A stretch of DNA of 64,000 nucleotides from Candidatus Aenigmatarchaeota archaeon (GCA_016180965.1 JACPAF010000001.1:223513-287512); one strand, 5' to 3'; shown: positions 17,585 through 45,281, counted from the stretch's first letter. Notes: generated from the letters alone by a model not told the origin. Program-made: numbers and translations.

Positions 17585-17659
17585 GAATTGCAAAACTTGC
17601 AAAGTTTGATCAAAAGTGAGTTTGTCAAGGAATAAAAGCTCGAAAGAAGAATTGATATA

Positions 17660-18151: not shown

Positions 18152-18215
18152 CCGTACGGGATGAAAAAAAAACAAAATCGATAATTTGTATAAATAAAAC
18201 TATGGAAGAATTTCA

Positions 18216-18761: not shown

Positions 18762-18794
18762 GGTTTTAAATACGTCGGAGAATAATCGTAGATA

Positions 18795-21710: not shown

Positions 21711-23984
21711 ATGGCCTTGCAGTTTGAGTACAGTCCGGAAGATAATTCTATAAGATTGAACACGCTGGGCACTTTATACGGGTCAAGTTTGGAGGATTTT
21801 GAGGCTATAATGGCAGCGGCGATAGACAAAATTGTCGAGGTCAAGAAAGTTTCGAGAATAATCCTGGCTGAGACGCGCGAATATGAATATGACTGGGAAC
21901 AAACACGCCTGTTGGTTGAGATCGCAAATGCTTTGGACGAAATAGTGCGCGGGCGACGTTTGTTGTCTGTTACCAACATATCCATACCAAATTGCGACCG
22001 GCACACCGCGGAAAGAAGCCATAACGTGCAGCGCATTGTCATTGATTTGATGCGGCGCGACCCTATTGGGGCGTATGCGGAAGTTTTGAGAGAGATACGC
22101 AAAGTGAAAATAGAAGCGCGGAAAAATCCGTACCACGTGCAATGCTACGCGCACTATGTCAATAATTCGCTTGCGCAAATACAGCGAATAATGGAATCCA
22201 CGACTTTGATCCAAATGATCAAAGATAACGTTGCCGGTTATCACATCGGGGACCGTACACTTTACAGAGAAATATTCCACCCTACAATACGGCCGAATTT
22301 CATGTTAACGCGTTTCATGTCCGCGACGCCGAAGGAAGGGCAGGCGGTCGACCGTTATAAAATAGGCGACATAGAAGTTGAAATTTACCGCATACCGTCG
22401 AAATCGGAATTAGTTTATCACGTGATTCCTCCGGAGTTTCAGTTAACGGAAGACAAGTACATGCTGTTGGACGCTGCGAGGCGTTACATGGCTGAACACA
22501 AACCGGTTGAGACTGAATTTTCAGATCCGGAACGCGCGCGCGAAATATTCTCCAACATCGGGCGCGACATGATACGAGACCTTTCGACGAACATGGGAAT
22601 TTTTTTGAGCCCGCTTGAGATAGAAAATATTACTAAAATACTGACGCGGTATACGGCCGGGTTTGGAGTGTTGGAAATATTATTAGCTGACGAAAAAATA
22701 CAGGACATTTACATAAATTCACCGATCGGGCAGAATCCGATTTACATAAACCACGCAGACTACAATGAGTGTTCGACTAACCTAATTCCTACGAAAGATG
22801 ATGCGGAGTCATGGGCAACGAGGTTCCGCATTGCGTCCGGGCGCCCGCTGGACGAAGCTAACCCGGTTTTGGACACGGACATAAATGTTCCGGGCGGGCG
22901 GGCAAGAGTAGCTGCGATCACGAAAACCTTGTCGCCCGAGGGTTTGGCATTTGCATTCCGAAGGCACAGGGATAAACCGTGGACGCTGCCGTTGTTCATT
23001 AAGGCAGGCGCGATAAGCCCGTTGTTCGCGGGTGTCATGAGTTTTTTAGTTGATGGATCAGCATCTATCCTGATCGCAGGCGGAAGAGGTTCTGGTAAAA
23101 CTTCATTATTAAACGCGATGATGCTTGAAATTTCGCCGAACAAGCGGATACTGACAGTCGAAGACACAATCGAATTGGCCGTGGATTACATGAGGAAACT
23201 CGGCTACAATATTGAAAGATTAAAATCGCGTTCCGTGATAACGCATATTGAAACAGAGATGGCTGCGGACGAGGCGTTGCGAACGGCGCTGCGCCTCGGA
23301 GATTCATCTCTGATAGTGGGCGAAGTCAGAAGTCTGGAAGCGAAAGCGCTCTATGAGGCAATGAGAATAGGCGCGTTGTCGAACGTTGTCGCAGGGACAA
23401 TTCACGGTGAGTCGCCTTATGGCGTTTATGACCGTGTTGTCAACGATCTTGGCGTGCCGTCGACGAGCTTCAAAGCCACGGATATAATCGTGATATCAAA
23501 AATGCTTCGTTCTGCGGATGGGTTACACAAATTTCGCCGTGTTACGGAATTAACAGAAGTCCGCAAACACTGGAAGACGGATCCGTATGACGAGAAAGGC
23601 TTTGTCAACCTCATGGAATATTCCGCGTCCGCGGACGAGTTAAAACCTACGGAAATATTATCTACGGGCGAGTCGGAAATAATCAACCGCATCGCCTCGC
23701 TAACAAGGGAGTGGGAAGGCCGTTGGGAGGATGTCTGGGAAAACATACAACTGAGAGCGAATATAAAAAAAGCGATGGTTGATTATTCGATAAAATTGAA
23801 TTTTCCGGAATTGATTGAGGCGCCTTGGGTCACGCAATCGAACGAACAGTTCCATATAATTTCTTCCAGGCTGAAAGAAGAAACGGGCTACATGGATCCC
23901 AAGGAGATATTTTCCAGGTGGGATAAGTGGTTTTCTTCGAAAATCAAGGAACGCGCCCCGCGAATGTCGGCACGGGTTTTGTGA
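21711..23984 (+). CDS. type IV pilus/secretion ATPase (FlaI/PilB/GspE/VirB11 superfamily) with about 300 aa N-terminal extension
   Basis: Walker A ILIAGGRGSGKTSLLNAMM, Asp box TVEDTIEL, Walker B/His box SLIVGEVRSLEAKALYEAMRIGA..VAGTIHG. 757 aa versus about 540 aa for FlaI. Confidence 0.85.
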   Translation: MALQFEYSPEDNSIRLNTLGTLYGSSLEDFEAIMAAAIDKIVEVKKVSRIILAETREYEYDWEQTRLLVEIANALDEIVRGRRLLSVTNISIPNCDRHTAERSHNVQRIVIDLMRRDPIGAYAEVLREIRKVKIEARKNPYHVQCYAHYVNNSLAQIQRIMESTTLIQMIKDNVAGYHIGDRTLYREIFHPTIRPNFMLTRFMSATPKEGQAVDRYKIGDIEVEIYRIPSKSELVYHVIPPEFQLTEDKYMLLDAARRYMAEHKPVETEFSDPERAREIFSNIGRDMIRDLSTNMGIFLSPLEIENITKILTRYTAGFGVLEILLADEKIQDIYINSPIGQNPIYINHADYNECSTNLIPTKDDAESWATRFRIASGRPLDEANPVLDTDINVPGGRARVAAITKTLSPEGLAFAFRRHRDKPWTLPLFIKAGAISPLFAGVMSFLVDGSASILIAGGRGSGKTSLLNAMMLEISPNKRILTVEDTIELAVDYMRKLGYNIERLKSRSVITHIETEMAADEALRTALRLGDSSLIVGEVRSLEAKALYEAMRIGALSNVVAGTIHGESPYGVYDRVVNDLGVPSTSFKATDIIVISKMLRSADGLHKFRRVTELTEVRKHWKTDPYDEKGFVNLMEYSASADELKPTEILSTGESEIINRIASLTREWEGRWEDVWENIQLRANIKKAMVDYSIKLNFPELIEAPWVTQSNEQFHIISSRLKEETGYMDPKEIFSRWDKWFSSKIKERAPRMSARVL

Positions 23985-23988
23985 TAAT

Positions 23989-26061
23989 ATGTCGGATGAA
24001 AGGAAAAAGATAGACGAGGAGGAACTTGCGCGCATCGCGCGCGATTACCAGACAAAAGTGTTCGATGAGGATAAACCCGAAAAAAACGAGCAGAACTTTT
24101 TGTCGCTTGACTACAAAACGTTCAAAACCGAGGAGAGGGGTTCTAAAAAATCCCTTGGCAATTATGAAAAGCTGTGCGCTATTTCGGAGAAAATATTAAA
24201 GGTCGAGCCTTCGAAGGGTTCTGAAGAACATCTGCGCAAGGAAATAGATTTTACTAACCTACAGTGCGCACCTTCGAGCGTAACGTCGGCAGCATTTTTG
24301 TCCACGATAATGCTGCTTGTCATTTCCCTTGTTTTTATTTTGCTGGGCGCAGTCCCGATATTTGTAGGATTGACGATGCTAATTTTTTCCATGATATCCG
24401 GAGTTTACGTCTACGGTTATCCGTCGAAACGCGCCAAAGATTTCCGCGTTAAGGCGTCGGAGGAAATAGTATTGTCGATAGTTTACATGGTCATATCGAT
24501 GCGTATCTCGCCCAATTTGGAAAATGCTGTGAAATTTGTAGCAACGAATTTAACCGGCCCGCTTGCCTTGGATTTCCGCAAATTGCTGTGGGACATTTAC
24601 ATGCGGAAAGAGGAAAGCATCGATAAGGCGCTGGGCACGTACATAGACGCGCGATGGAAAAACGAGAACGAGGAATTTTCTTCGGCTTTGACATTAATAC
24701 GCAATTCGATAGACCAGCCTGAGAAGAAACGTCTTGCAATGTTGGACGAGGCTGTTGATGTGATATTAAAAGGCACGAAAGAAAGGATGAGCCATTATGC
24801 ACAGAATCTGCGGATGCCTTTGCTGATAATACATGCGATGGGCATTTTGCTGCCGATAATGGGATTGGTGATGTTCCCGGTATTAGTTTTGTTTTTATCC
24901 AATATTGTGCAGCCGTACATGCTGTTTTTGGGTTATGACGTGTTTTTGTTTTTGGGATTGTACTGGTACACGTCAAGCGTATTGGCAACGAAACCGCCGA
25001 CGCTTTCTAAACCTGATGTTTCAAAACATCCGGACACGCCAAGAGAAGGATATTTCCGCGCTCACGTTTTCGGGAAAAAACTGGAGATAAAAACAATCAT
25101 ATTGCCGTCCATACTTTTCGCAGTTCTGTTTTTCATAGGCTATAATGGAATGGTTTCCGGAGCAAGTTCGTTTGAACGCGTGATTTATTCGACTGTAATA
25201 ATTGCGTCTATTTCGCTTTCGATATCTCTGTACGGTTTCCTTGAAAGTTTCCAGCGTACGAGCGTACGGCGCAAAGTCATTGGAGTTGAAGGCGAGTTTG
25301 CGGAGGCGATTTTCCATTTAGGCAACCAATTGTCTTCAGGCACGCCAATTGAAAATGCGATAGATAAAAACCAGGAGAAGATTCGAGATTTGAGCATCTC
25401 CGATTTTTTCGGGCGTATTGTGCAGAATATTAAAAGAATGGGCATGACATTCGAGCAGTCTATATTCGATAAAAATTACGGGGCCGTTTGGTACTACCCG
25501 TCGAGCTTAATAATTTCCGTGATGCGCGTTGTCGTTGAGGCGGTAAGGAAGGGCGTTTACAATGCGTCGCAATCGATGCTGTCCATTTCCCGCTATCTCA
25601 AGGACGTACATTCCATCGAAGAGGAGTTACGCGACATATTGGGCGAAAGCACGACGAGCATGAAATTTTTAAGCTCGATTCTTGCGCCGATGGTTGCCGG
25701 CGTTACGGTCACGATGGCGTTGATAATGCTCGATATAATCAAAGTTTTAGGAGACAAGCTCGCAGGATTAACGCAACAGGGCGTCGGGACTAGTTTGCCA
25801 TTGTTCTTGACAGTGGGTTTGGATAAAGGCGGCGTGACTGCGGAAATATTCCAGCTCGTGGTCGGCATATACATGATTGAAGTCGCGGGTTTGTTGTCGT
25901 ATTTCGTCAGCAAAATAGAGACGGGCGAAGATAAAATAAATCTTTACCACACATTATCTATCAATATGTTAATTTCATTGATAGTCTACGCGTTTTCGAT
26001 ACTTACCGTTTATTCCACTCTGGGTTCGCAGATACAAAACACAATACTAGGGGGCATTTGA
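23989..26061 (+). CDS. polytopic pilus platform protein (FlaJ/TadC/PilC-like, T2SS-F domains)
   Basis: 690 aa with at least nine TM helices, immediately downstream of the ATPase. Confidence 0.7.
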   Translation: MSDERKKIDEEELARIARDYQTKVFDEDKPEKNEQNFLSLDYKTFKTEERGSKKSLGNYEKLCAISEKILKVEPSKGSEEHLRKEIDFTNLQCAPSSVTSAAFLSTIMLLVISLVFILLGAVPIFVGLTMLIFSMISGVYVYGYPSKRAKDFRVKASEEIVLSIVYMVISMRISPNLENAVKFVATNLTGPLALDFRKLLWDIYMRKEESIDKALGTYIDARWKNENEEFSSALTLIRNSIDQPEKKRLAMLDEAVDVILKGTKERMSHYAQNLRMPLLIIHAMGILLPIMGLVMFPVLVLFLSNIVQPYMLFLGYDVFLFLGLYWYTSSVLATKPPTLSKPDVSKHPDTPREGYFRAHVFGKKLEIKTIILPSILFAVLFFIGYNGMVSGASSFERVIYSTVIIASISLSISLYGFLESFQRTSVRRKVIGVEGEFAEAIFHLGNQLSSGTPIENAIDKNQEKIRDLSISDFFGRIVQNIKRMGMTFEQSIFDKNYGAVWYYPSSLIISVMRVVVEAVRKGVYNASQSMLSISRYLKDVHSIEEELRDILGESTTSMKFLSSILAPMVAGVTVTMALIMLDIIKVLGDKLAGLTQQGVGTSLPLFLTVGLDKGGVTAEIFQLVVGIYMIEVAGLLSYFVSKIETGEDKINLYHTLSINMLISLIVYAFSILTVYSTLGSQIQNTILGGI

Positions 26062-26555
26062 TGAGCGCTTCCGATCAACCAAGGTTTTTGTTCTGGCTAG
26101 TCACTGCGTTCATAATGGCGCTCACGCTTTACGGCGTTGCGTCCTTGCTCTTGCCAAGATTGATAAGGTTTAACCAACTGCCCGAATCAGGCGAGTTGTA
26201 CGTGGACAGCGCCGACGCGCTTTCGACTAGGATTGCGTACAGCATGTGTAATTTGTGGCTCGCGCGCGACAGTTACAAAACCGGTTTTAGCAGCACGTCC
26301 CAGTACAAGTCCGTTTCCGCTTCGGTTGATAAAAACACAGTTGCATCGAAGTTATTCGATTCTGATTGCAAGGATTTCATTTTCAACAAACAATGGACAT
26401 ATACGGGCGACGAGATAGATGCGGATAAAAAAATCTATAACGTGGAAATATCTTTGGAACCGAATACCATAATGATTCCGGGGAGCGGTGAATCTCCATC
26501 AGTCATACTGAATAACGATAACAGAAAGATAATAGTAAATGTGAAAGAGAAATGA
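26061..26555 (+). CDS. membrane-anchored protein translationally coupled to the platform gene
   Basis: Start ATG overlaps the TGA of the platform gene (TGATG). N-terminal TM helix FLFWLVTAFIMALTLYGVASLLL. Confidence 0.45.
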   Translation: MSASDQPRFLFWLVTAFIMALTLYGVASLLLPRLIRFNQLPESGELYVDSADALSTRIAYSMCNLWLARDSYKTGFSSTSQYKSVSASVDKNTVASKLFDSDCKDFIFNKQWTYTGDEIDADKKIYNVEISLEPNTIMIPGSGESPSVILNNDNRKIIVNVKEK

Positions 26556-26564
26556 GATGATTTG

Positions 26565-26798
26565 ATGAATGTGTTAAAGGGCCAGATAGAATCCGAGGCT
26601 GCGAAAACGCTTTTCCTAGGCATACTGGCTTTGGTGGCGTTGGCGGTTATCGTGGCTGTAATATTTGCGTTTCAAGGCCTTTCGTCGGGAGCCAATTTAC
26701 CGAGCGTGTGCGATGTGGGCGGGGGGCTTGTGGATAAAACTGTGTGTTTGCCGGCGCGTGCAACGGCCTGGGTTTACAGCCATACCATCGGGCGATAA
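26565..26798 (+). CDS. small pilin-like protein (class III signal peptide)
   Basis: MNVLKGQIESEAAKTLFLGILALVALAVIVAVIFAF: KG-Q cleavage motif followed by a hydrophobic helix. Confidence 0.5.
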   Translation: MNVLKGQIESEAAKTLFLGILALVALAVIVAVIFAFQGLSSGANLPSVCDVGGGLVDKTVCLPARATAWVYSHTIGR

Positions 26799-26799
26799 A

Positions 26800-27036
26800 A
26801 TGAATAAATGTAAAAAAATTGGCGATGATATGTTAAACAAAAAAGGGATAACAAGCGCAATGCTGATCATTCTCGGATCCATAGCGGCAGGTTTGATAGT
26901 CCTTTTGGTAGTGATAGCTTCTTTGGATGAAAAAACAGGGCTGGTAGCATTGGCAATAGCGATAGGCAAGAGCATATGCGGTTTCATCGCAACAGTTATC
27001 ATAGGCGGTTTCGGATTGGCCATATGCAATATCTGA
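26800..27036 (+). CDS. small pilin-like protein
   Basis: MNKCKKIGDDMLNKKGITSAMLIILGSIAAGLIVLLVVIASL. Alternative ATG at 26830. Not in the track as a separate ORF. Confidence 0.45.
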   Translation: MNKCKKIGDDMLNKKGITSAMLIILGSIAAGLIVLLVVIASLDEKTGLVALAIAIGKSICGFIATVIIGGFGLAICNI

Positions 27037-27078
27037 ATGATATTTTATCTTAACGGACGAATAATCAAGAGGCATAAC

Positions 27079-28593
27079 ATGGTGAAAAAAAGAAAAGGAA
27101 TGGACGCAGCCGTGCTCAGTCTTGCGCTGGGCGTTGTAATACTTCTTGTTGTTTTAGGTGTTATTGTCGGGTTAAACACATCAGGTTCGTTCAAGGATTT
27201 TCTTGCCAAAGTTCCTTGGTTGAATAAAATTGTTCCGGTTGATGACACCAGTGATGGAGGCGGCGGCGGGCCAGGAGGAGGTTCTGTCGTAGCGCCGCCG
27301 GGCAAGCCATCGGGCGATGTGGTATATTTAGTCGCAGCCAGAAAAAGCACATCCACTGACCGCAGCCTTCGAGTTAAAATTTCCGACGGTGTTCCATCGG
27401 GCGAAAGCATTAAGTACAATTTCAAGAAAGGCGACACTTTGGAGTATGATGTTTATCTTCCTTTGAAGACTCCATGTACGGGCGGCATGGGTTTGGTTGT
27501 AACCGCAAATGGAAAAGACATAGACCTCGGCGACGACAATAAATGGGTAGATTCGACCGGGAAGGTTTCTGGTGGGTTGAAGAACTGCAATCCGGATCCG
27601 AAGAAGGTTGTTACGGAAAGCGATCTGACACCATACACCTATGACAAGAAACAATGGTATCATCGTGTTATTCCAATACCCGATGTATATGCCGGCGCAG
27701 CCACTCTGAAAGAAGTCAGATTATTGATGAACGGCGGCACGCCTTATGCTATGTACATTGCGGTTTATGACAATATCATTATAAAATCACCGGTCAACGG
27801 AAAAGATTATATCATATACAAGGACGGCGCTCCAAAATTCAGCGAAATAGATTGCGGTTCTGCGTTTGGTACAAAATGCAATTTCGATGAGGATAAAACG
27901 AAAGTTATAATCAGGAAACCAGCTAGCATCACATTGGAATACGACATCAAATCGGTTGCCGGCGAGATATTGAAGTTATCGGCGATAAGCGACGGCGGAG
28001 GATGCAGCTGGTTTGATAGCAGCGGATGCCAGTGGCTTTATTTGAAGGCGTTTGAATTGGGTTCTGCGTATACAGTCCAGCCGGGCGACATTGTTGAATA
28101 TGACGTTTATCTCGGAAAATGCGCCAAAGAGGTCGGCGGCATAGATTTGCGTGATAAGAGCGGTTCGATTAAGTGGAGTAATATGAAAGATTATTACTGG
28201 GACAACATGTATGACTGGGACAGCACGAAGATAATATCCGGCAGACCGGATGATTCGGGCATGGACCTAGGCACGAAAGCCGGCGAAATCGCATGCCTGA
28301 AATGGTACCACAGAAAACTTCCAGCTGCGCCGAATATGTGGGGTAAAGCCGTCGAAATTGTAGATTTGGCGATAGGATACGATGCGGGCGAGAATGAGCA
28401 AGTGAATGTTTATTATGACAACTTACAGATAACGGACGGCATCGGGCAGGTCAAGGCGTTTTATCCTGGCGGTGTGGATATAGTTCTCTACCAGTTTGAT
28501 GAGAAGAACGACAACGGCGGAATACGGGCGTACAAAAAAGACTCGGTTTCATTGACAAAGATAAACCCGGCAGACATTGATCACCCGACGTAA
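27079..28593 (+). CDS. large pilin-like surface protein (504 aa) with class III-type N-terminus
   Basis: MVKKRKGMDAAVLSLALGVVILLVVLGVIVGL, then a Gly-rich linker GGGGGPGGG and a Cys-containing beta-rich domain. AAGAGG Shine-Dalgarno before ATG 27079. Confidence 0.6.
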   Translation: MVKKRKGMDAAVLSLALGVVILLVVLGVIVGLNTSGSFKDFLAKVPWLNKIVPVDDTSDGGGGGPGGGSVVAPPGKPSGDVVYLVAARKSTSTDRSLRVKISDGVPSGESIKYNFKKGDTLEYDVYLPLKTPCTGGMGLVVTANGKDIDLGDDNKWVDSTGKVSGGLKNCNPDPKKVVTESDLTPYTYDKKQWYHRVIPIPDVYAGAATLKEVRLLMNGGTPYAMYIAVYDNIIIKSPVNGKDYIIYKDGAPKFSEIDCGSAFGTKCNFDEDKTKVIIRKPASITLEYDIKSVAGEILKLSAISDGGGCSWFDSSGCQWLYLKAFELGSAYTVQPGDIVEYDVYLGKCAKEVGGIDLRDKSGSIKWSNMKDYYWDNMYDWDSTKIISGRPDDSGMDLGTKAGEIACLKWYHRKLPAAPNMWGKAVEIVDLAIGYDAGENEQVNVYYDNLQITDGIGQVKAFYPGGVDIVLYQFDEKNDNGGIRAYKKDSVSLTKINPADIDHPT

Positions 28594-28624
28594 CGCGTAA
28601 TAATACCGTTTTACAAATACATTT

Positions 28625-28975
28625 ATGACCTTTTCCAAACGACGAAAAGAAAATAGAATGGGCATAGCCGAGTATAATTTCGCCTTGCTGATGGGGCTGG
28701 TAATTGCGCTGGTGATGCTGGCAGTTTATCTCGGCTGGATAAAGGGGAGCGGTGAAAACGTTGAGCGCGAAAGAAACCAAATGGTTGCGGCAGCAGGATG
28801 TTTGGCGGACAATTCATGCGCCAAACTGAGCAGCGACAAATTTTGCATAAACACTTATGAAGGAAAGAATGAGTGCGGCTGCTGGGCATGGATGGGAATT
28901 GACGGCAATGCGGGCTGCGGACCTGGCAAAAGATGCGTTTCGGAACGGGGGACGAATTATGGAAAATGTGTTTAA
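28625..28975 (+). CDS. small Cys-rich pilin-like protein
   Basis: RMGIAEYNFALLMGLVIALVMLAVYLGW, then a Cys-rich domain CINTYEGKNECGCWAWMGIDGNAGCGPGKRC. Confidence 0.45.
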   Translation: MTFSKRRKENRMGIAEYNFALLMGLVIALVMLAVYLGWIKGSGENVERERNQMVAAAGCLADNSCAKLSSDKFCINTYEGKNECGCWAWMGIDGNAGCGPGKRCVSERGTNYGKCV

Positions 28976-29153
28976 GGGACAAAGCAGCGACAACGTACTG
29001 ATGCTGGCTTTGGTTGTCGTGGGCTTGTTGATTATCCTCGGCGCCGGGATATTTATCGTGGCAGTCGTCGGCAAATCCGCGGGATTAAATTCCGTCCCGC
29101 TGATCGGAGACGCGTTGTGCGACCTGATGAAAGGGTTGCGGGTGGAGTGTTAA
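28959..29153 (+). CDS. small pilin-like protein (KGQ class III motif)
   Basis: MENVFKGQSSDNVLMLALVVVGLLIILGAGIFIVAVV. GGGGGA Shine-Dalgarno. In-frame internal start of track ORF 28857-29153. Overlaps the previous gene by 17 nt in another frame. Confidence 0.45.
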   Translation: MENVFKGQSSDNVLMLALVVVGLLIILGAGIFIVAVVGKSAGLNSVPLIGDALCDLMKGLRVEC

Positions 29154-29202
29154 CTATTAACATCTTTTATATTTTTCAAAATTCATATTTAACTTGTTTT
29201 GA

Positions 29203-29631
29203 ATGCCGGAACGTGAAATTAACCTTGCGCAATTTGTGATGATAGGCATTATACTCCTTGCTGTGATACTTGGAATAGTTTTCGTTTTCATTGTTCCAAA
29301 TATCAACAAAACAAAAGAGAGCGGGATGCTTGATTTTGCCTGCACGGCTTACCAGGGCGACATCGGATGCAATAACAAGGCGTGCGGTGCCGACTATACC
29401 GATGAGGGATGTGAAAAACTTTTGCGAGGCGTTTCCATGGACATCAAAAATGAAAAAATAATATTGTGGACGCAATGCGATGGCGCGGGCATAACTGAGG
29501 CCAAAAGCTGTCATTTAAGATGCTGCGGGATGGCGATAGCCGGGCGCGGCGACCCTTGCAACGATGAGACTGTCAAATGCGCGAGCGGGCTGAAATGCGA
29601 TTTGTCTACCAGATCTTGCATAGCAGCTTAG
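29203..29631 (+). CDS. Cys-rich pilin-like protein
   Basis: N-terminal hydrophobic helix LAQFVMIGIILLAVILGIVFVFIV, then 14 Cys (CTAYQGDIGCNNKACGADYTDEGC...CHLRCCG...C...C...C). Confidence 0.45.
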   Translation: MPEREINLAQFVMIGIILLAVILGIVFVFIVPNINKTKESGMLDFACTAYQGDIGCNNKACGADYTDEGCEKLLRGVSMDIKNEKIILWTQCDGAGITEAKSCHLRCCGMAIAGRGDPCNDETVKCASGLKCDLSTRSCIAA

Positions 29632-29654
29632 TTTATTTTACCGAAGATGAAATT

Positions 29655-29999
29655 ATGGTTGTGCGAAAAAAAGGAATGATGATTGTCGAGCTGATGGTCA
29701 TTGTGGTGTTAGCCGTAATAGTATTGGCGGTTTTAATCGGGATTATAATTTTGGGCGGGCAGCAGCCGACAAGCGATTTAGCGAAACAAACTTTAGTGCG
29801 TTCTTGTTGCCAATTAAACATGCCGTTATCCTGCAGCAACACGCAGAACGTGAATTGCATTGTTTCCAAGGAATTAGAAGCCGGTTTCGATTGCACGCCA
29901 ATCGACGGCAGCCCGTGCAAAAAAACTTTAGTGGAAATCGCCGGCAAAGTTGGCATATCTGACGTGTCTGGAGTCAAAACGTTCTGCGGGTGCGGATAA
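29655..29999 (+). CDS. type IV pilin-like protein with bacterial-style G/MMIVE motif and Cys-rich C-terminus
   Basis: MVVRKKG|MMIVELMVIVVLAVIVLAVLIG has Glu at +5 after Gly. C-terminus ...KTFCGCG. Confidence 0.55.
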   Translation: MVVRKKGMMIVELMVIVVLAVIVLAVLIGIIILGGQQPTSDLAKQTLVRSCCQLNMPLSCSNTQNVNCIVSKELEAGFDCTPIDGSPCKKTLVEIAGKVGISDVSGVKTFCGCG

Positions 30000-30034
30000 A
30001 ATCCAATTTAATAAGGATTTACGAATAATATTTG

Positions 30035-32749
30035 ATGTTGACAGAAATTAAACAAGTCAAATTTCATTCTGAATCGAGAAAAGGTTTTGGCGAAGATCAG
30101 GTTTTTCTCCTTGTTGGGATATTGATTTTGGTAATAACATCCTACATGATTTACATGCTGATAGGCGGACCGACGTGCGACGATTTGGCCAAACGAACTG
30201 CGAACAACATTAAAGTCGCGGTCGACTCTGTCGCGACAACGGGGACGTACACAAAAGATTCTCCGTATACTACGTATGCGATGCTGTGCCAGAACAAAGT
30301 TGGAGATCCTTTAACATTGAACCCATTCCAATATAGAGTGTTTTCTGCGCCCGAATACATGATCTACTGGGAGCATTTTCCAAACGCGCCGAACAACATT
30401 GTTGAAGGATTGTACAAATTCGATGAGAGTTATCCGTTCACTAAAAACACTGCGCAGATAATAGGGATAACATTGGCTACTTCATTTATCAGCGGTACAT
30501 TTTCGTCGTTGAAAGCTGCGAAAAACCTTGGGATTACAGATGAAGTTTTAGCTAAAACCGAAGGGACGAAGATGGGCGATGCGATCAGGCTGTTTGGAAA
30601 AACGAAAGACGCTGTAATGGCGCCTTTCACATACCCGGTGAGGGGTATTAAATATTTGCTGAGCTTGCCGGGCAAAGGCATGAAGGCCTTATACACAATT
30701 ACGGGCCTTAAGGGGATTGTTGACGACGGGGTCAAGTACATAACAAGCAAGACTGCACCCAAAATATTTGGGCACCAGGTCAGCCTCGGATTCCTGGCGT
30801 CGATGGCGGACAACGGCTTGATCGAGGCGTCGAACGTCGGGGAAGAACTGGCGGTAAATATTATCAAAGTCACCGACGACGCGACAGGCGAGGTTATTGA
30901 AAAGGCTGTTGTGCCAGTGGGCAGGAGGGCAGAACTGAAAACAGTTGTTGACGGGTTGATCGGGAGCGCAGACGATGCGGAAAAACAGGCCGGGCTGGCG
31001 CTGAAAAGATATTTCGCCTATACCGACGACGATTTTGCAAAATCCCTCGGAAGTTCGCAATCAAAGTTTGAGGATATAATACTGAAATCGGACGTTGATG
31101 ATAAAGGATTTTACGGGTTGGTCAGCGGGGCTTCAAAAGCTGCTGAAGAACAATTTGACGCGAATGCGAAAATCATGGCATCAAGGTATGGTTTATACTC
31201 GTCGCGGCCGATAACCTCGTTTTTTGAACAGAGCGGGATAACGAAGTTTTCAAACAAAATCACCGCAACGGACGTTTTCAGGAGGATGGATTTTTTTGTA
31301 ACAGACGACGCTGGTAAAGCTGTGTTGAAACCGGAAATGCTCGAGAAGATACAGAGCAGTTTCAAGGAATTGAAAATACAAACGCAGCTTACCGACCCGG
31401 ATAAAATTACTGACGCGACGGGGCGCTTTTTCACGAGCAGCGAATCCATAGTTGCGGGCGCGGAAACGGATACGGCCATGCTGTCGTACGCGGAAACTTT
31501 TTTGAAGAACGCAAAGGACGGGCCGGCCACCGGAATAAAATTGGACGCGTTGGAACATTTCTTCAAAGGGACAGCATCGGACGATGAGATAGCCAGCATA
31601 TCCAGCAAATTTTCTACCGGATATTTGCAGGAAATGAAAGATGCTGGAGTAAGCCAGGAAATCATAGATTCCGCTTCCAAAAAACTTTCCACCGCTAATT
31701 ACGGCAGGAGGCTGTTGAGGGACTATTCTTCGGAATTGAAGCTTGCCCAGGGCGTTACTGTTGATACCAATGAAGTTTACGAGATTGCAAAGCTTTCCGC
31801 GGCATGGAAGCGCGAACCGGAGCAGTTAGCTTTGATGGCGGATGAAAAGTATACTTTCATACCTTATGCAATTTATGAAAAAATTGGAGGATGGAGCCCG
31901 AAAGCCACAAGCAAATTCATAAAAGTCAATATCGAATCGTACGGTTTGAATGAGATGGAAAACAATTTGAAATACCTTTATCTTAAATCTCCGAATGCCG
32001 GATGCGAATCAAACACGGTCTGTTTAAACCAGAAGGGGGTTGAACAAAAAAAATCCGACGTTTCCGAGGATCAGGTGAAGGATTATGAGACGATGTATGC
32101 TGTCTCGAAAAATGTCATGGTGCGCTTGGATCGAGGTGGTTTTACGTCCCCTATAGGAGCGGGAATAGGCGCTTTCTCTTTTGACAAGGAACCGCGGTTT
32201 CATTTGGTGTCGCCATGCCTTGCGAAATTAAGCGTTTACGAGGACGCTGACAATCCTACTGACGGCGAGACCGGAAGACCGCTGGTGAAAGTCAATGTTG
32301 ATCCGTGCCCTGTTACAGGCCATTCAAACTATTGTTATTTCCCAACAAGCAAATTCAACGAAATGGCCGCAGGTTTTTACGGTTCGTTAGCATGTTCCAT
32401 TGTCGCTGACATAGGGAAAGCCGCCCTGTTCGGTTTTGTTTTACAGCCAGCGTGTTCTGGAATACAAATTAAAACCGAATACGATACTACTTGGCCTTTC
32501 TCGCCTTTCCAGCCTTTGAAAAGCGCGGATATGAACGTATTGAATTGCGAAATACAAAAAAATCCGAAGGATGCGGCGAAATTAATGGTGACGGCGTGCT
32601 GCGGACTTGCGAAATGCGACGGCAGTTATGTATGCTCTGGAAATAATTACGCGGACAAGAACCAGGCAATTTGCGGAAAGGACAAGTGCACAATGGGAGA
32701 TTTGTCCAAAATGTCCGGGCTGGATTACAAATCCGCGTGCGGATGCTGA
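30035..32749 (+). CDS. giant pilin-like surface protein (904 aa) with class III-type N-terminus and Cys-rich C-terminal domain
   Basis: MLTEIKQVKFHSESRKGFGEDQVFLLVGILILVITSYMIYML. The last about 250 aa hold 20 Cys and end ...KSACGC. Confidence 0.6.
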   Translation: MLTEIKQVKFHSESRKGFGEDQVFLLVGILILVITSYMIYMLIGGPTCDDLAKRTANNIKVAVDSVATTGTYTKDSPYTTYAMLCQNKVGDPLTLNPFQYRVFSAPEYMIYWEHFPNAPNNIVEGLYKFDESYPFTKNTAQIIGITLATSFISGTFSSLKAAKNLGITDEVLAKTEGTKMGDAIRLFGKTKDAVMAPFTYPVRGIKYLLSLPGKGMKALYTITGLKGIVDDGVKYITSKTAPKIFGHQVSLGFLASMADNGLIEASNVGEELAVNIIKVTDDATGEVIEKAVVPVGRRAELKTVVDGLIGSADDAEKQAGLALKRYFAYTDDDFAKSLGSSQSKFEDIILKSDVDDKGFYGLVSGASKAAEEQFDANAKIMASRYGLYSSRPITSFFEQSGITKFSNKITATDVFRRMDFFVTDDAGKAVLKPEMLEKIQSSFKELKIQTQLTDPDKITDATGRFFTSSESIVAGAETDTAMLSYAETFLKNAKDGPATGIKLDALEHFFKGTASDDEIASISSKFSTGYLQEMKDAGVSQEIIDSASKKLSTANYGRRLLRDYSSELKLAQGVTVDTNEVYEIAKLSAAWKREPEQLALMADEKYTFIPYAIYEKIGGWSPKATSKFIKVNIESYGLNEMENNLKYLYLKSPNAGCESNTVCLNQKGVEQKKSDVSEDQVKDYETMYAVSKNVMVRLDRGGFTSPIGAGIGAFSFDKEPRFHLVSPCLAKLSVYEDADNPTDGETGRPLVKVNVDPCPVTGHSNYCYFPTSKFNEMAAGFYGSLACSIVADIGKAALFGFVLQPACSGIQIKTEYDTTWPFSPFQPLKSADMNVLNCEIQKNPKDAAKLMVTACCGLAKCDGSYVCSGNNYADKNQAICGKDKCTMGDLSKMSGLDYKSACGC

Positions 32750-33225
32750 ATAAAATGAAAGGAATCATAATAGTAAGGGATTTCATCATTTTTCTTTCAG
32801 AGCTTGGAATATTACTGTTAAGCATACTTTTCATAACAACAGCGGGCGCAGCCATGGGCGAGTTTGTTTTTAATTTTGATTCGCGGCTTGCTTCAGAGAC
32901 TTTATTCGGGTTCCATACGGCTGCCGACATGGCTCCGAGCTATGAGGCGAGTTTTATAATGGCTTCAAACCCGTACACAATGAAAATATCCAAAGACGGA
33001 AATGATAATTTTATTTTCATAAACTCCACCAGGGAACTCTTTAACTTAGCCCACACGGCGCAGGTAAAAATATTGCCACCCAGAAAACTTTTCCTTGTAA
33101 ACTCCGGACCGAATGAAATAATATTGATAGAAAAAAAAATGGACGAAAAACACAACTGGCTGATTGGTGTGAAGAAAACCGACGGTAAAACCGTGACTTT
33201 GGTGAACGAGCAAGAGGTGAAATGA
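32743..33225 (+). CDS. pilin-like protein
   Basis: MLNKMKGIIIVRDFIIFLSELGILLLSILFITTAGAAMG. Start overlaps the stop of the 904 aa gene. Confidence 0.45.
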   Translation: MLNKMKGIIIVRDFIIFLSELGILLLSILFITTAGAAMGEFVFNFDSRLASETLFGFHTAADMAPSYEASFIMASNPYTMKISKDGNDNFIFINSTRELFNLAHTAQVKILPPRKLFLVNSGPNEIILIEKKMDEKHNWLIGVKKTDGKTVTLVNEQEVK

Positions 33226-33665
33226 TGTCTACGTTCATGGCTGAAAATTTACTTAAAATCGTTGCGCTGGTTGTCAGCATATTGGGCATACTAGCCACAT
33301 TAGTCCAATTCCAATCGTTCAGTTTGGAGATACACGGCAAGCAGGTTGACAGGGAGTATTTAATTTTTTCACAATACATGGCTGGTGCGCCTTTCCTTAC
33401 GTACGATAAACCGGATTACAGGAAAGGGGTTTTAGACGCCGACAAATTGAACGCATTGGACAACGGCTCCTTCGCGCAAAAATTCAGCTTCGCCGACCTG
33501 ACAAAATATCTTATCATCATAGCAACGGATTCTAGTACGTGGATTTTCGGGGACGATTCAATACTGAAAGAAAAAAACAGGGTGTGGGCGCATCCGGTTG
33601 CGGTAAAGATGTCAGATACCATAATACCTGGTACGATGAAAGTTTATGTGCCGAAGGCTGGTTGA
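33222..33665 (+). CDS. pilin-like/membrane-anchored protein
   Basis: MMSTFMAENLLKIVALVVSILGILATLVQF. AAGAGGTGA Shine-Dalgarno. Start overlaps the previous stop. Confidence 0.4.
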   Translation: MMSTFMAENLLKIVALVVSILGILATLVQFQSFSLEIHGKQVDREYLIFSQYMAGAPFLTYDKPDYRKGVLDADKLNALDNGSFAQKFSFADLTKYLIIIATDSSTWIFGDDSILKEKNRVWAHPVAVKMSDTIIPGTMKVYVPKAG

Positions 33666-33666
33666 A

Positions 33667-34242
33667 ATGAATAACCTTTTTAGAAAAAAGCTTAACCAAA
33701 AAATGAAAGGAGACGTGTGGTACGTTTCGACTTTCTTTTTTCTCGTTTCGCTCTTTTCCGTAACAATGATAATGCTGTTTTCAATGAGCATCGCGCGTCT
33801 GATTGTCGGAAATTTGATAGATTACACGGTCCACGTGAGCTTTTTGGATTTTTCCCTGAACACGGAAAACGCTTTGTTGTCGGGGATGGAAATTAAAATG
33901 GACCCGAACGACACTTCGATGAAGACCATATTATCAAATGCCGCGTTCCAATGGAGCGGGGATCCTGGTTGGGATAAAAATGTTTTTGCGGGCGGAAAAA
34001 TGTACGATGCGGCCCAGCGTTCAAAGGACATCTTTGATAAATTGGTGCAGGGGCCGTACATTTTTGAATTGCGAAAGCAATTCGATGCGTCCGACGCGAG
34101 AAGGATAATATTTGCCGAGCGTAATGCGGAGTCGATTAAAAGCGATCCGGAAGTTGCTGAGATGGAATTTTATTTGCCGTATCCGGCGTGCGGCGGTTGC
34201 AGTAAAATTGCAGTTTACAGACTGTATTCAACGGTGAAATAA
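33667..34242 (+). CDS. pilin-like protein
   Basis: MNNLFRKKLNQKMKGDVWYVSTFFFLVSLFSVTMIMLFSM: basic residues, KG, then a hydrophobic helix. Confidence 0.45.
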   Translation: MNNLFRKKLNQKMKGDVWYVSTFFFLVSLFSVTMIMLFSMSIARLIVGNLIDYTVHVSFLDFSLNTENALLSGMEIKMDPNDTSMKTILSNAAFQWSGDPGWDKNVFAGGKMYDAAQRSKDIFDKLVQGPYIFELRKQFDASDARRIIFAERNAESIKSDPEVAEMEFYLPYPACGGCSKIAVYRLYSTVK

Positions 34243-35562
34243 ATGAGGGGAAGCATTTACACGTTCATGGGAAGCATCGTGATGGTTATGATAGGCGTAG
34301 GGATAATCTGGTGGTTTAGGTCTGTTGTTCCTTCGGAAGCTTTCATAGTTTCTGAAAGGCACAGGGAAAGTTTTTCCGCGTTGAATTATCTGGAGCTGTC
34401 AAGAAAATCCATGGAAGAAGCAATTATGATTTATGCGCAGACCGGCGCGACGAAAGCCGGCTCAGCGGGCGGGCTGGATGCTACAGCCCAGCAGAAGGAT
34501 AAAATTGCGATATGGAAAAATGCGCCCGACGCGACGACGATAAAGGACACGCTGCAAAGATACATAGTGGACGAGATTGCGATTTTGCAGCAACATGAGA
34601 TCAAAGGCAAATTCCTGGCAATTGATTACGGAAGTTTGAACATTCAGATCAATCCTGACAGCGATGACTTTTCTAAATCTGAAAAGTTTTATGTGAAAGG
34701 CGAGAAGGAAATAAAAGTTTCCAAGAACCTGCAGACGCAGGCCATAAAAATCTCAACAAGCTTGAAGGGCTACATAGACGACGAGATTAAATTAAAATAT
34801 TTCGCGCTATACGACGCGGCGAAAAAGTTTTTCGAGGGCGGAGAGCCCGTTAACAGGATAAACAGCGCATTTAACGGCGTTAACACGGTTGGGAGCAAAA
34901 CGAATAGTGCCTGTCCGTCTGCCAGCGTTGGATGCGTAAGCAAGGCATGCCCTGTTTTCACGACAACATTCCCGACGCCGCCGGAGGTTTTGAACGAGAA
35001 AACAGACTTTTCCAAACTGCTTGTCAAAGCGGGCGGTATAACAGGAGCAATCGCAGGCGCACCATTTTCGTTATTCAATGCCAAGTTTGAAAACTATGCA
35101 TCAGCGTTCTTGGCTGGCTACGGGTCATCAGACATAACACAACCAACAGGCAGTTGCGGCTTTTCATGCACTTACCTGGAACCGAACCCTTGCAAAACAA
35201 CAGTGCCTGATTGCGCGCCTGCGGCAGACTCGGACAGCCCACCAGTTTGCACCCCAAAATGCGTACCCGGTTTTGATACTATAACTTTATCGTGTTCGGC
35301 AGAGACTAAAACAACAACTATAGCTTTCACATTCCTCGCCGACGCGTATGAAAAATATTCTTCCGAAGACCCGTCAGGGATTGTTCCGTCGACGAGTATC
35401 CATGACGTCGCTGTTGTCTCAAAACCATTACCTTACGATACGCTCAAGTTTAATTTCATGACCCACAGCTGTACGACGATAGATAAAAACGCGGTTGTTA
35501 CGGAGCTAAAGGATAATATTGAATCATGCCAATTGCCTCCGAGCGTTACGAATCATGTTTAG
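34243..35562 (+). CDS. large pilin-like protein (439 aa), Cys-rich
   Basis: MRGSIYTFMGSIVMVMIGVGIIWWF (RG-S motif). The C-terminal half holds 16 Cys. Confidence 0.5.
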   Translation: MRGSIYTFMGSIVMVMIGVGIIWWFRSVVPSEAFIVSERHRESFSALNYLELSRKSMEEAIMIYAQTGATKAGSAGGLDATAQQKDKIAIWKNAPDATTIKDTLQRYIVDEIAILQQHEIKGKFLAIDYGSLNIQINPDSDDFSKSEKFYVKGEKEIKVSKNLQTQAIKISTSLKGYIDDEIKLKYFALYDAAKKFFEGGEPVNRINSAFNGVNTVGSKTNSACPSASVGCVSKACPVFTTTFPTPPEVLNEKTDFSKLLVKAGGITGAIAGAPFSLFNAKFENYASAFLAGYGSSDITQPTGSCGFSCTYLEPNPCKTTVPDCAPAADSDSPPVCTPKCVPGFDTITLSCSAETKTTTIAFTFLADAYEKYSSEDPSGIVPSTSIHDVAVVSKPLPYDTLKFNFMTHSCTTIDKNAVVTELKDNIESCQLPPSVTNHV

Positions 35563-35615
35563 AGTGAAACCAATGTATTTAAGCCAATTCGAGGAAATAG
35601 ATAATAAGGTCAAAA

Positions 35616-35915
35616 ATGAAGCGCAAGGGTATCTCTTTACCAATAGACATGCTCGTTATCTTGGCGATAGCTGTCATTATTCTAATTGCTGTTGTGGCTG
35701 TTTTCATGGGCGTATGGAGTCCTTTTGCGACGAACCAACAGGCAAGGGCGAATTTCAACAAAGAATGCCAGGTTTTAGTTAATACGGGCTGTACGCAAAC
35801 TCCTTCGCTGGCGTTATGCAAAGCGGCTAATGGGATTGTTTTGAACAAAGAAACTTGCGATAGTGATCCAGACAGACTTGCGGTCAAGAAAGGATGCGGC
35901 TGCCCGGGATTGTGA
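35616..35915 (+). CDS. type IV pilin (candidate major pilin), C-terminal GCGCPG
   Basis: MKRKGISLPIDMLVILAIAVIILIAVVAVFMGVW...KKGCGCPGL. Tandem paralog of the next gene. Confidence 0.65.
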   Translation: MKRKGISLPIDMLVILAIAVIILIAVVAVFMGVWSPFATNQQARANFNKECQVLVNTGCTQTPSLALCKAANGIVLNKETCDSDPDRLAVKKGCGCPGL

Positions 35916-35919
35916 TCTT

Positions 35920-36315
35920 ATGGTTAAAAGAAAAGGTATTTCGCTCCCAATTGATATGTTAGTTGTTTTGGCAATCGCTGTCATAATTTTAATCGCGATC
36001 GTTGCCGTTTTCATGGGTGTCTGGAATCCATTTTCGACGAACCAGCAATCACGGGCGAATTTCAACAAGGCTTGCCAGATATTAGTCAACACCGGCTGCG
36101 CAGGAGATCCGTCAGTGGATTTGTGCAAAGCTGCGAATGGAATTGTTTTGAATAAGGACACTTGCGATAGTGATCCGGATAAACTTGCGGTTAAAGTCGG
36201 GTGCGGCTGTCCGGGCGTTTCCGGAACAACGGCAACTGCTCCGCCGGCTGGTGACAGTGGTTCTCCAGGCGCACCGGGTCCGGGAGATGTGGGTGACAGC
36301 GGGCCTTCTAGATAA
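35920..36315 (+). CDS. type IV pilin paralog with Gly/Ser/Pro-rich C-terminal tail
   Basis: MVKRKGISLPIDMLVVLAIAVIILIAIVAVFMGVW...VGCGCPGVSGTTATAPPAGDSGSPGAPGPG. Confidence 0.65.
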   Translation: MVKRKGISLPIDMLVVLAIAVIILIAIVAVFMGVWNPFSTNQQSRANFNKACQILVNTGCAGDPSVDLCKAANGIVLNKDTCDSDPDKLAVKVGCGCPGVSGTTATAPPAGDSGSPGAPGPGDVGDSGPSR

Positions 36316-36370
36316 TGGATTTTAAATGTTTAGAATGTTGAATTAGGTTGTTGATTAAGGGTAATTGAAA

Positions 36371-37561
36371 ATGAAAACTCCTACAGTTAAAACAAGTTTA
36401 TTCGTTCTAAGTTCAATTTTTGTGATGTTTTTATTTTCTTTTCTTGCTTATTCCGGCGCGGGTGTTGGCAGTTCCATGGTTGCGGATGTAAGTTTTACAG
36501 CAGATGAAACTTCGCAACAAAAACAGGCCGCAGATTCATTCAACGCACTACAAAAATACAAGCCCGACCAGCAGGTTTTGATAAAAGTTAGAGGTTCTGT
36601 GGTCGGCTCGGGCAGCATATGGTATATGGGCGTCGGTTTGGTAAAAACAGGCGATGATAAATTTGTTTACAAATATTGGGTATCACCAAGCGGTGGCGCA
36701 GTTGATACTTCTTCGGCCGTTACGCCAGAAGCTTTGGCTAAATGCCCGGGCGATGGAAAAGATTGTACGATGACCATAAAATTACCCGGCACGGCTTCAC
36801 AATATGCCGGGATGGAAGTAATACCATTTTTAAGCGGTTTCCTAGACGGGAAACAAACATCGAATGCGCAATTTGGAAGCTATTATGTAATACGTGTCCA
36901 GGGCGCGGTTGTTGATCTTGGAAAACTCGGGATAACGGTTCCAAATGAAAAACCTACGGTTACAGTTAAAGCAGAGAGAAATGCGATATACACAGATGAA
37001 AAGGTGAAGATTATGGTCGAGGCGAAAGCGTCTGACGGGGATATCAGGTCCATATCCGTGGATGTGCCCACTCAGGCCAATTCGAAGCAAATTTACGATT
37101 GCAACAATAAAGAAAGAAGTTTGTGCAAACATGATTTTTTAGTTCCTCTAAAATCTGTGGGTGATTTAACTGTGATGGCAAAGGCTGTTGATTTGAGAGA
37201 TTCTGAATCCGACTCAAACGGTGTTACAATATCGGTCCAGAACAGGGTCAGCGTAGTGGAAGGATTTAACACTTTTGTGGTTGGAGGAAGCAGTTCTGAC
37301 GGAGCCTTGTTCAGGTCTTGGTTATCCATGAAACAGGACGAAAATAAGAGGACGTTCGGCACAACAGACGTTTATTTGTGGGAGATTCCCGGTGCCACAC
37401 AATGTGGCTGGGAGCAAAGCACGTTTGCAGCTCTCGGGTCCAATTTTGTCTGGAAAAGAATAGATATGCTATACAAGTTAAATTCAGATGATAAGGCGCT
37501 TGCGGTTTATTGCGTGAAAAGTAAATATGTTTATTCAGGTTCTGGCGACGAGGATTATTAA
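36371..37561 (+). CDS. secreted protein with Sec-type signal peptide, beta-rich (Ig-like) domains
   Basis: MKTPTVKTSLFVLSSIFVMFLFSFLAYSGAG, then a Thr/Ser/Val-rich beta-strand pattern. 396 aa. Confidence 0.5.
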   Translation: MKTPTVKTSLFVLSSIFVMFLFSFLAYSGAGVGSSMVADVSFTADETSQQKQAADSFNALQKYKPDQQVLIKVRGSVVGSGSIWYMGVGLVKTGDDKFVYKYWVSPSGGAVDTSSAVTPEALAKCPGDGKDCTMTIKLPGTASQYAGMEVIPFLSGFLDGKQTSNAQFGSYYVIRVQGAVVDLGKLGITVPNEKPTVTVKAERNAIYTDEKVKIMVEAKASDGDIRSISVDVPTQANSKQIYDCNNKERSLCKHDFLVPLKSVGDLTVMAKAVDLRDSESDSNGVTISVQNRVSVVEGFNTFVVGGSSSDGALFRSWLSMKQDENKRTFGTTDVYLWEIPGATQCGWEQSTFAALGSNFVWKRIDMLYKLNSDDKALAVYCVKSKYVYSGSGDEDY

Positions 37562-45195: not shown

Positions 45196-45281
45196 TGAAC
45201 CACCTTGATTTTGTATTATGCCAAACCGGTTTATAAGCCCCATCACGTGCGGGATATTAAAAAGCCAGCACAAGTTATATT

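Follow-up and report, generated by a model that had tools for sequence, protein, structure and literature searches.

We describe a small cysteine motif, Cys-Gly-Cys (CGC), that recurs in the pilin-like proteins encoded by a 64,000-nucleotide stretch of DNA (GCA_016180965.1, JACPAF010000001.1:223513-287512) from a Candidatus Aenigmarchaeota (DPANN) genome; the whole stretch is called the window below, and positions are counted from its first letter. Bases 21711-37561 of the window are best explained as a lineage-specific type IV pilus-like operon of this archaeon, and orthologue alignments and sequence shuffles show that CGC is conserved in the pilin-like proteins of the locus and does not occur there by chance. 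Judging from the sequence evidence, the motif probably serves structural disulfide bonding, and the smallest CGC-bearing subunit and its many relatives form an unannotated family of pilins of the disulfide-stabilised type, not a new kind of system. The pilin-like proteins on which the argument turns are listed here by position, with their lengths in amino acids (aa) and a slash at the expected point of leader cleavage.

28625-28975, plus strand: prepilin-like protein o28625, 116 aa, 8 Cys, with an internal K-N-E-CGC followed by a 3-Cys tail module
29203-29631, plus strand: pilin-like protein o29203, 142 aa, 12 Cys
29655-29999, plus strand: prepilin-like protein o29655, 114 aa, 8 Cys, MVVRKKG/MMIVE...
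30035-32749, plus strand: large prepilin-like protein of 904 aa (also o30032), ...SRKG/FGEDQV..., 18 Cys
33667-34242, plus strand: prepilin-like protein o33646, 191 aa, ...KMKG/DVWY..., with a single CxxC near the C-terminus
34243-35562, plus strand: pilin-like protein o34243, 439 aa, MRG/SIYTF..., 12 Cys in the C-terminal half
35616-35915, plus strand: candidate major pilin o35616, 99 aa, MKRKG/ISLPIDMLV..., 6 Cys
35920-36315, plus strand: o35920, tandem paralogue of the candidate major pilin, 131 aa, 6 Cys

A first-pass annotation of this DNA had drawn attention to CGC in five of these proteins, and all five peptides that it quoted are present. The candidate major pilin o35616 ends in ...KKGCGCPGL, its six Cys being arranged as C51-x7-C59, C68, C82 and C94-G-C96 (CGC at nucleotides 35895-35903), and o35920 reads ...KVGCGCPGV before a 34-aa Gly/Ser/Pro tail (CGC at aa 95-97, nucleotides 36202-36210). 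In o29655 a CC lies near the end of the helix and the C-terminus is K-T-F-CGC-G (CGC at 29985-29993), the 904-aa protein ends in ...KSACGC (32738-32746), and o28625 carries the motif internally as ...KNECGCW..., at aa 84-86 of 116 (28874-28882). The Cys-rich ectodomains noted at the same time are also there: o29203 and o34243 have 12 Cys each, and 16 of the 18 Cys of the 904-aa protein fall in its last 248 aa. As background, the 55 other open reading frames (ORFs) of the window contain 0.65% Cys and not a single CGC tripeptide. When each ectodomain was shuffled 20,000 times with its Cys-rich composition kept, the paralogues o35616 and o35920 being counted once, CGC occurred in four families against 0.47 expected (P=4.5e-4) and within the last 8 residues in three families against 0.03 expected (P<5e-5), and the extended motif [KR]-x-x-C-G-C was present in all four families (P<5e-5). 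The motif exceeds chance even for so Cys-rich a composition.

Lack of conservation in orthologues had been named in advance as grounds for giving the motif up, and what we find is conservation, of the motif as well as of the remaining Cys positions; the CGC motifs stay unchanged in orthologues of as little as 35% identity. Across 35 homologues of o35616 (47-100% identity), C51, C59, C68, C94 and C96 are invariant, G95 is nearly so, and the fourth core Cys lies near position 82. The terminal K-x-F-C-G-C of o29655 is invariant in 11 homologues, o28625 keeps its CGC and eight Cys in 7 of 7 orthologues, and the 904-aa protein keeps all 18 of its Cys in each of 13 orthologues, the most distant of them 36% identical; one orthologue has CSC. 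Among genomes the Gly codon of CGC is GGA, GGC, GGG or GGT, a synonymous variation that points to selection on the peptide and not on the DNA. We note that one relative of the 904-aa protein (P0043, a 703-aa partial sequence of 76% identity on a 2.1-kb contig) is labelled 'Candidatus Uhrbacteria bacterium', a label that probably stems from faulty binning in the public record.

A profile built on o35616 extends these observations to a much larger family. Searched against 1.84 billion cluster representatives, it recovered 541 clusters (defined at 50% identity) with E<=1e-3, 68 of them with E<=1e-10, and neither Pfam nor NCBIfam has a model for these proteins. In the tallies given here, which use 146 of the top 150 matches, 114 representatives have a CxC doublet after the helix and 21 have CC instead. 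Within the 114, the middle residue is Gly in 84 (74%), Pro follows in 38, and K or R stands at -3 in 63. Apart from the terminal doublet, the near-universal Cys are those at profile positions 52 and 60 (180/181 and 173/181 sequences). The minimal core is represented by 16 sequences with only C-x7-C and CxC, which suggests that the middle Cys pair, whose position shifts among family members, is an optional addition that pairs with itself. Organism names, found for three proteins among 30 family representatives looked up, were all Aenigmarchaeota, which leaves the spread of the family past this phylum undecided; the named members come from groundwater and other samples. The family signature, KG/xxLPIxxLV ... 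C-x7-C ... [KR]-x-x-C-G-C, offers a means of annotating major pilins in genomes of Aenigmarchaeota and of designing expression constructs.

What follows the doublet is informative about its function. Among the 114 CxC representatives the doublet is followed by 5 or fewer residues in 67, by 6-20 in 16 and by more than 20 in 31 (~27%), with a range from 0 to ~60 aa, and the long tails are Ser/Thr/Pro/Gly linkers, often with extra Cys-rich modules behind them. Such tails argue that the motif marks the end of a domain and is not a C-terminal signal. The first-pass annotation had considered a sorting or anchoring signal, and a CGC(PG) end could conceivably act in this way, through an archaeosortase-type enzyme or through a Rab-like double prenylation of -CXC or -CC; the 67 short-ended representatives would suit this, and the ends -CGC, -CGCP, -CC and -CCGK superficially resemble Rab C-termini. 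However, the tails are highly variable, with more than 5 residues past the doublet in 47 of the 114 and further folded modules in some, and the motif of o28625 is internal. Past CGC there are 0-5 residues, linkers or Cys-rich modules, with neither a hydrophobic anchor helix nor a basic tail, and the proteins already possess an N-terminal signal for membrane insertion and assembly. Pfam scans of the ~60 window ORFs found no sortase, archaeosortase or prenyltransferase gene in the operon or elsewhere in the window. We therefore find a sorting, anchoring or lipidation signal hardly credible.

The numbers of Cys are more telling. An even count is found in 15 of 15 operon proteins, in 40 of 40 homologues (6, 8, 10 or 12 Cys) and in 137 of the 146 distant cluster representatives, and several of the odd-count representatives are fragments or have a Cys in the leader. 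Changes between orthologues, too, come in pairs. Members of the o29655 family have 6 or 8 Cys, one pair apart. Orthologues of o29203 have 12 Cys in four genomes and 8 in three (ending ...RCCGK): the 8-Cys core closes with R-C-C-G, in which the terminal doublet takes its CC form, and behind it a C-terminal module of 4 Cys is either wholly there or wholly missing. The o34243 orthologues have 12, 12, 12 and 18 Cys with positions mostly conserved, and the CxxC pair of o33646 (ACGGC) is kept in five of six genomes, the sixth (L004) carrying a different pair elsewhere. Even parity together with change only in pairs points to disulfides.

The 4-Cys module deserves a remark of its own. It reads approximately G-x2-C-x5-C-x-[ST]-G-x-C-x6-15-C, has no Pfam match, and recurs at 29545-29628 of the window, in the tails of P0010, P0011, P0012, P0017, P0021 and P0023 and at the C-terminus of L009:1326-2804. 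It is appended to differing pilin-like proteins, behind a Ser/Thr/Pro linker where one exists, and is all-or-none among orthologues.

One natural variant bears on which Cys may be bonded to which. The family members P0070 and P0077 are identical over their first 58 residues; P0070 has ...ACAAWARLGC... and ...ACGC..., and P0077 has ...ACAAWARLGY... and a C-terminal ...ACGYK. In P0077, then, C-x7-C and CGC have each lost their second Cys through a change of Cys to Tyr, leaving four Cys. This joint loss is expected if the two lost residues were partners, in which case the two remaining first Cys would pair. At a minimum, although it is a single case, the comparison shows that C-x7-C and CGC are neighbours in space.

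The same variant speaks to the other half of the role first suggested for the motif, disulfide bonding or metal binding. Let us suppose that the Cys bind Zn, Fe, Cu or an Fe-S cluster, the filament then being metal-stabilised or redox-conductive. Metallothionein-type sites often contain CxC and CC doublets, and four invariant Cys could in principle make a tetrahedral site. Yet a metal site needs neither an even number of Cys nor pairwise change, and both hold throughout; the two Cys of the four that P0077 retains would be useless for a Cys4 site and are exactly what one disulfide requires. Moreover, the o35616 homologues have no conserved His or Asp partner, and the middle Cys pair moves in position. 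We consider metal binding very unlikely, and of that earlier suggestion it is the disulfide part that is well supported, by the even counts, the pairwise changes and the correlated double loss.

Structure prediction offers a partial view of the head domains. The AlphaFold2 (AF2) model of o35616, made from 35 sequences (predicted local distance difference test, pLDDT, 77), consists of helices only (residues 9-56, 65-71 and 84-94), the last of them ending at C94, and a Foldseek search of the PDB with this model gave no match at E<=0.001. The 904-aa protein modelled from 13 sequences has a mean pLDDT of 53, with only residues ~841-904 and ~250-600 above 60; a model of this quality does not justify a fold search, and we draw on it just for the secondary structure of the C-terminal mini-domain. 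This mini-domain, the last ~60 residues with CGC at the end, is predicted with reasonable confidence to be helical.

These observations can be accommodated in the following scenario. The subunits would be made as prepilins with class-III-type signals, in which [KR]-G precedes a hydrophobic helix; the signal would be cleaved at KG/ and the hydrophobic helix would form the core of the filament. The small subunits would carry a head of ~55-70 aa, predicted to be all-helical, and a head so small would have too little hydrophobic core, making disulfides its likely stabiliser. The conserved framework begins with one Cys (or CC) where the long N-terminal helix ends, has another Cys 7 residues on, and finishes with a terminal doublet, C-G-C or sometimes C-x-C, CC or CxxC, which would close the last amphipathic helix in the form hydrophobic-[KR]-x-x-C-G-C. 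Each Cys of CGC may then bond one Cys of C-x7-C, C51 with C94 and C59 with C96 in o35616 numbering, forming a double staple that would tie the C-terminus back to the N-terminal helix, and the variable middle Cys, paired with each other (C68-C82), would make a third bridge. CGC would be the structural end of the head domain, and whatever lies past it, be it nothing, a Ser/Thr/Pro/Gly linker or extra 4-Cys knots, would hang off the filament surface; the modular nature of these tails suggests a route by which the exposed surface could be diversified. The conservation of the motif, the even parity, the gain and loss by pairs, the size of the family and the lack of sorting features are observed directly, whereas the formation of the disulfides, their exact pairing and the identity of the major subunit are deduced. 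Our confidence in structural disulfide bonding as the role of CGC is reasonably good, whereas for the cross-staple topology with C-x7-C we would put the chances at even or slightly better.

Two other arrangements of the same disulfides have to be weighed against the cross-staple. In the first, the two Cys of CGC are bonded to each other in a strained 11-membered ring, C-x7-C is a local bridge, and CGC acts as a redox shuttle or an isomerase-like switch. The parity data fit this arrangement equally well, the preference for Gly in the middle (84 of 114) suits it, and so does the lack of a dedicated oxidoreductase nearby. The C-terminal CGC tail of yeast Erv2p reportedly passes disulfides on, and protein disulfide isomerase can be mimicked by CGC peptides. 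However, the loss in P0077 would then leave two orphan thiols, unless the motifs are adjacent anyway, and CGC is freely replaced by CC, by CxxC and by CxC with any of ten other residues in the middle, which fits poorly with a tuned redox ring. In small disulfide-rich proteins the Cys of CxC or CC doublets mostly bond different partners. This arrangement seems to us unlikely.

In the second arrangement, the doublet and C-x7-C form disulfides between neighbouring subunits and so cross-link the filament covalently. Both motifs lie at the junction of helix and head, which is the subunit contact zone in type IV filaments; the correlated loss in P0077 shows adjacency, not whether it is within or between subunits, and covalent stability would suit an exposed attachment fibre. 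On the other hand, the same framework is present in the 904-aa domain and in probable minor subunits, which could not all occupy equivalent lattice positions; the AF2 monomer of o35616 is compact, at moderate confidence; and the pools of pilin in the membrane must stay monomeric until assembly. We doubt, then, that the bridges run between subunits. More generally, we see a small chance that the four-Cys cluster of C-x7-C and C-G-C is a redox-active centre or an inter-subunit disulfide lock, beyond a static staple. If the former were true, a redox-active CGC could let a genome-reduced DPANN cell without nearby Dsb or VKOR catalyse the oxidative folding of its pilins by itself; if the latter, the cell could covalently zip subunits together during filament assembly.

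The recurrence of one framework in several proteins of the operon would be explained if these are diverged paralogues. The first-pass annotation had regarded the CGC proteins as otherwise unrelated, a description that the comparisons do not support: o35616 and o35920 are tandem paralogues of 83% identity, and o29655 and the C-terminal domain of the 904-aa protein are linked to the family through a 'CC-first' subgroup (e.g. P0109, P0093 and P0084). The o35616 profile catches this subgroup full-length, the o29655 ectodomain matches the same three representatives at E=2e-5 to 4e-4, and for the C-terminus of the 904-aa protein there is a match to P0088 (E=1e-3). We infer that the shared framework may have been inherited from one ancestral head domain whose sequence similarity has been largely erased. 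BLAST matches between o35616 and the o29655 orthologues were discounted as signs of homology, being mostly driven by the transmembrane helix.

The setting of these genes is that of a pilus system. They belong to a same-strand operon of an ATPase, a membrane platform protein and ~14 prepilin-like genes with N-terminal [KR]-G/hydrophobic-helix signals, and we identify the locus by the T2SSE ATPase, the T2SSF-like platform protein and these [KR]G/hydrophobic N-termini. Besides the genes listed above, the cluster contains the following.

21711-23984, plus strand: type IV pilus-type secretion ATPase, 757 aa, TadA/FlaI-related, with a long N-terminal extension (Pfam T2SSE, E=6e-19)
23989-26061, plus strand: polytopic membrane platform protein, 690 aa, weakly T2SSF/TadC-like (Pfam T2SSF, E=1.9e-4, under cut-off)
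26058-26555, 26562-26798 and 26830-27036, plus strand: three small membrane or prepilin-like proteins with N-terminal hydrophobic helices, 2 Cys each
27079-28593, plus strand: prepilin-like protein, 504 aa, MVKKRKG/MDAAVLS..., 8 Cys
32755-33225 and 33222-33665, plus strand: two pilin-like proteins, Cys-free
36365-37561, plus strand: last gene of the cluster, secreted protein, 398 aa, Sec-type signal-like N-terminus, 6 Cys

The ATPase scores E~1e-41 against the NCBIfam TadA-family and FlaI models, under their cut-offs. With the platform protein it heads the same-strand cluster, the genetic linkage looked for in a pilin locus, and the gene order is identical in six other Aenigmatarchaeota genomes. 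The ATPase is 88-93% identical in L001, L003, L004 and L005, the platform protein keeps its place in L001-L005 at 75-87% identity, and orthologues of the trio at 26058-27036, of which o26830 begins MLNKKG/ITSAML, are present at all syntenic loci. The pilin-like proteins are 23-89% identical across the syntenic genomes, compared with 75-93% for the ATPase and platform protein; being less conserved than these components, they follow the pattern expected of exposed subunits. A pilin leader, meaning a short basic segment with [KR]-[GA] at its end and a hydrophobic helix of ~20-30 aa behind it, is found in o35616 (MKRKG/ISLPIDMLVILAIAVIILIAVVAVFMG), o29655 (MVVRKKG/MMIVELMVIVVLAV) and o30032 (...SRKG/FGEDQVFLLVGILIL). 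A homologue search found o35616 to be identical to a hypothetical protein of a Candidatus Aenigmarchaeota metagenome-assembled genome, and the neighbours of the pilus cluster are archaeal (AMP phosphorylase, ApgM, CDP-archaeol synthase and Pus10). It is uncertain whether the secreted protein at 36365-37561 is part of the pilus system; in L008 a similar gene comes after the pilin.

A scan of metagenomes with the family alignment gave three loci only and added little. Some distant members of the CGC family, L012:2839-3174, L014:695-1030 and L010:418-978, stand alone among archaeal housekeeping genes, outside any pilus operon: Alba and a class Ib tRNA synthetase are the neighbours in L012 and L014, and in L010 the pilin is separated from a thermosome gene by two small ORFs and a weakly archaellin-like one. 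Stand-alone genes are, as a general statement, typical of major pilins (PMC4858521). Because they are the smallest and best conserved, are tandemly duplicated, and have distant relatives that stand alone, o35616 and o35920 are probably the major subunits. The 904-aa protein and the other larger proteins are probably minor or tip subunits, the former being a candidate adhesin or tip protein.

Several observations weigh against this account. As a pilin, o35616 stays under the threshold of the Pilin_N model PF07790 (E=0.009, 17.3 bits against a cut-off of 25.2) and has no NCBIfam match, while a canonical pilin of the window, at 58223, passes the threshold of its family hidden Markov model (HMM); moreover, Pfam finds no prepilin peptidase (Peptidase_A24) gene in the 64-kb window. 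As to common descent, ectodomain-only hhalign comparisons between the window's families are weak, the sole signal being between o29655 and the C-terminus of the 904-aa protein (P=4e-4, probability 35%), and an ectodomain-only family HMM detects none of o29655, o28625 and o29203, so that the descent of these heads from one ancestor rests on the transitive CC-first links. The proposed pairing rests on one natural double-loss variant and on presence/absence logic, and since CGC adds two Cys either way, parity cannot separate cross-pairing from a disulfide internal to CGC. Lastly, no gene for a thioredoxin-fold protein, DsbA/B or VKOR is found in the 64-kb window by Pfam or NCBIfam, so that the search for a nearby oxidoreductase or sortase recommended by the first-pass annotation has yielded neither, and the oxidation of ~90 cysteines per operon is left unexplained. 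Such organisms often live in low-oxygen groundwater, and a concrete question is raised here: how does a minimal-genome cell oxidise dozens of extracellular Cys without an oxidoreductase near the operon? The only CxxC that a regular-expression search finds inside the operon, that of o33646, was considered as an oxidation catalyst and set aside; o33646 is itself pilin-like, and its pair is missing in the L004 orthologue.

Other features of the window may be recorded briefly. An array of six paralogous membrane proteins without Pfam matches (15190-19388) ends ~2.3 kb upstream of the pilus ATPase; two of its ORFs, 18216 and 18795, are 68% identical, and the remaining members ~30%. Three tandem Cys-free paralogues (~30% identity), also without Pfam matches, occupy 8338-10550, and those at 9126-9824 and 9864-10550 end in ...SRGGF. 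A gene for TnpB, the IS200/IS605-type RNA-guided endonuclease, lies at 13259-14485 (NCBIfam, E=1.6e-89). On the minus strand at 44277-45273, an XPG_I (FEN1-like) ORF of just 226 aa is overlapped at its upstream end by a 129-aa ORF; this flap endonuclease gene may be split, frameshifted or affected by an assembly error.

How do these pilins compare with known systems? They share with the pilins of class III signals (PF07790, TIGR02537; e.g. the UpsA-like proteins of 58223-60695) a basic leader ending in [KR]-G, a hydrophobic helix of ~25 aa and genetic linkage to a T2SSE-type ATPase and a T2SSF-like platform protein. Unlike them, the CGC family begins KG/ISLPI(D/N)xLV in place of KG/xSPLIA, and its HMM scores are below the thresholds. 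Its heads are ~60 aa long, predicted to be all-helical and furnished with 4-8 Cys, whereas those of the window's canonical pilins are ~120 aa long with many N-x-S/T sequons and 1-2 Cys. These canonical pilins belong to a second pilus locus at 58223-63729, with four Pilin_N/UpsA-like pilins (KG/[VL]SPLIA...) and two T2SSF genes on the minus strand; with this locus alongside the CGC operon, the genome has two very different pilin types.

In bacterial type IVa pilins the D-region is a C-terminal segment of the head that is tied onto the pilin body by one disulfide, between Cys 12-30 residues apart, on an alpha-beta roll. The CGC pilins, by our proposal, would likewise tie their C-terminus back with disulfides, but with a vicinal C-x-C paired to a C-x7-C where the helix ends, and on a head built of helices; neither sequence nor fold is similar, the AF2 model of o35616 containing helices only and no alpha-beta roll. 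The '8-Cys motif' of plant non-specific lipid-transfer proteins and 2S albumins also builds small all-helical domains in which the Cys of CC or CXC bond to different helices; to the CGC heads this is an analogy and not a homology, as the order and spacing of Cys differ. As for the organisms, DPANN archaea are very small, few have been cultured, and a life attached to other cells is generally assumed for them.

Were Cys-rich pilins unusual for archaea, as the first-pass annotation had it? In Cys density they do stand apart from the canonical pilins of the window, but they are not unprecedented: in the type IV pili of Thermoproteales (subclade 4E), almost all components have multiple conserved Cys, expected to form stabilising disulfides (Makarova et al. 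2016, PMC4858521). Those are hyperthermophilic Crenarchaeota, whereas the CGC pilins belong to DPANN archaea from groundwater and sediments. The same paper describes neither a C-terminal CxC nor a C-x7-C framework, and DPANN genomes are outside its census, the word 'DPANN' occurring 0 times in its text. DPANN pilus loci have been described with FlaI/TadC-type components and many 'dark matter' proteins with signal peptides, for which a role as diverse pilins is predicted (Makarova et al. 2019, PMC6393860), and the CGC operon, with components of this type and its divergent predicted pilins, resembles them; the words cysteine and disulfide occur 0 times in that paper. In the literature, our coverage of which is incomplete, we found no description of a CxC-terminated archaeal pilin family.

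A parallel in way of life exists with bacteria of the candidate phyla radiation, whose pilin folding has been proposed to be disulfide-dependent, with an MdbA-like oxidoreductase and VKOR in their genomes (Meheust et al. 2019, PMC6744442). Here, too, an ultra-small and probably host-attached organism invests in type IV pili, although the system is archaeal and no oxidoreductase or VKOR was found within the 64 kb. Surface filaments of DPANN archaea are prime candidates for attachment and are almost wholly unannotated, and the CGC family defines a large family of pilins among them.

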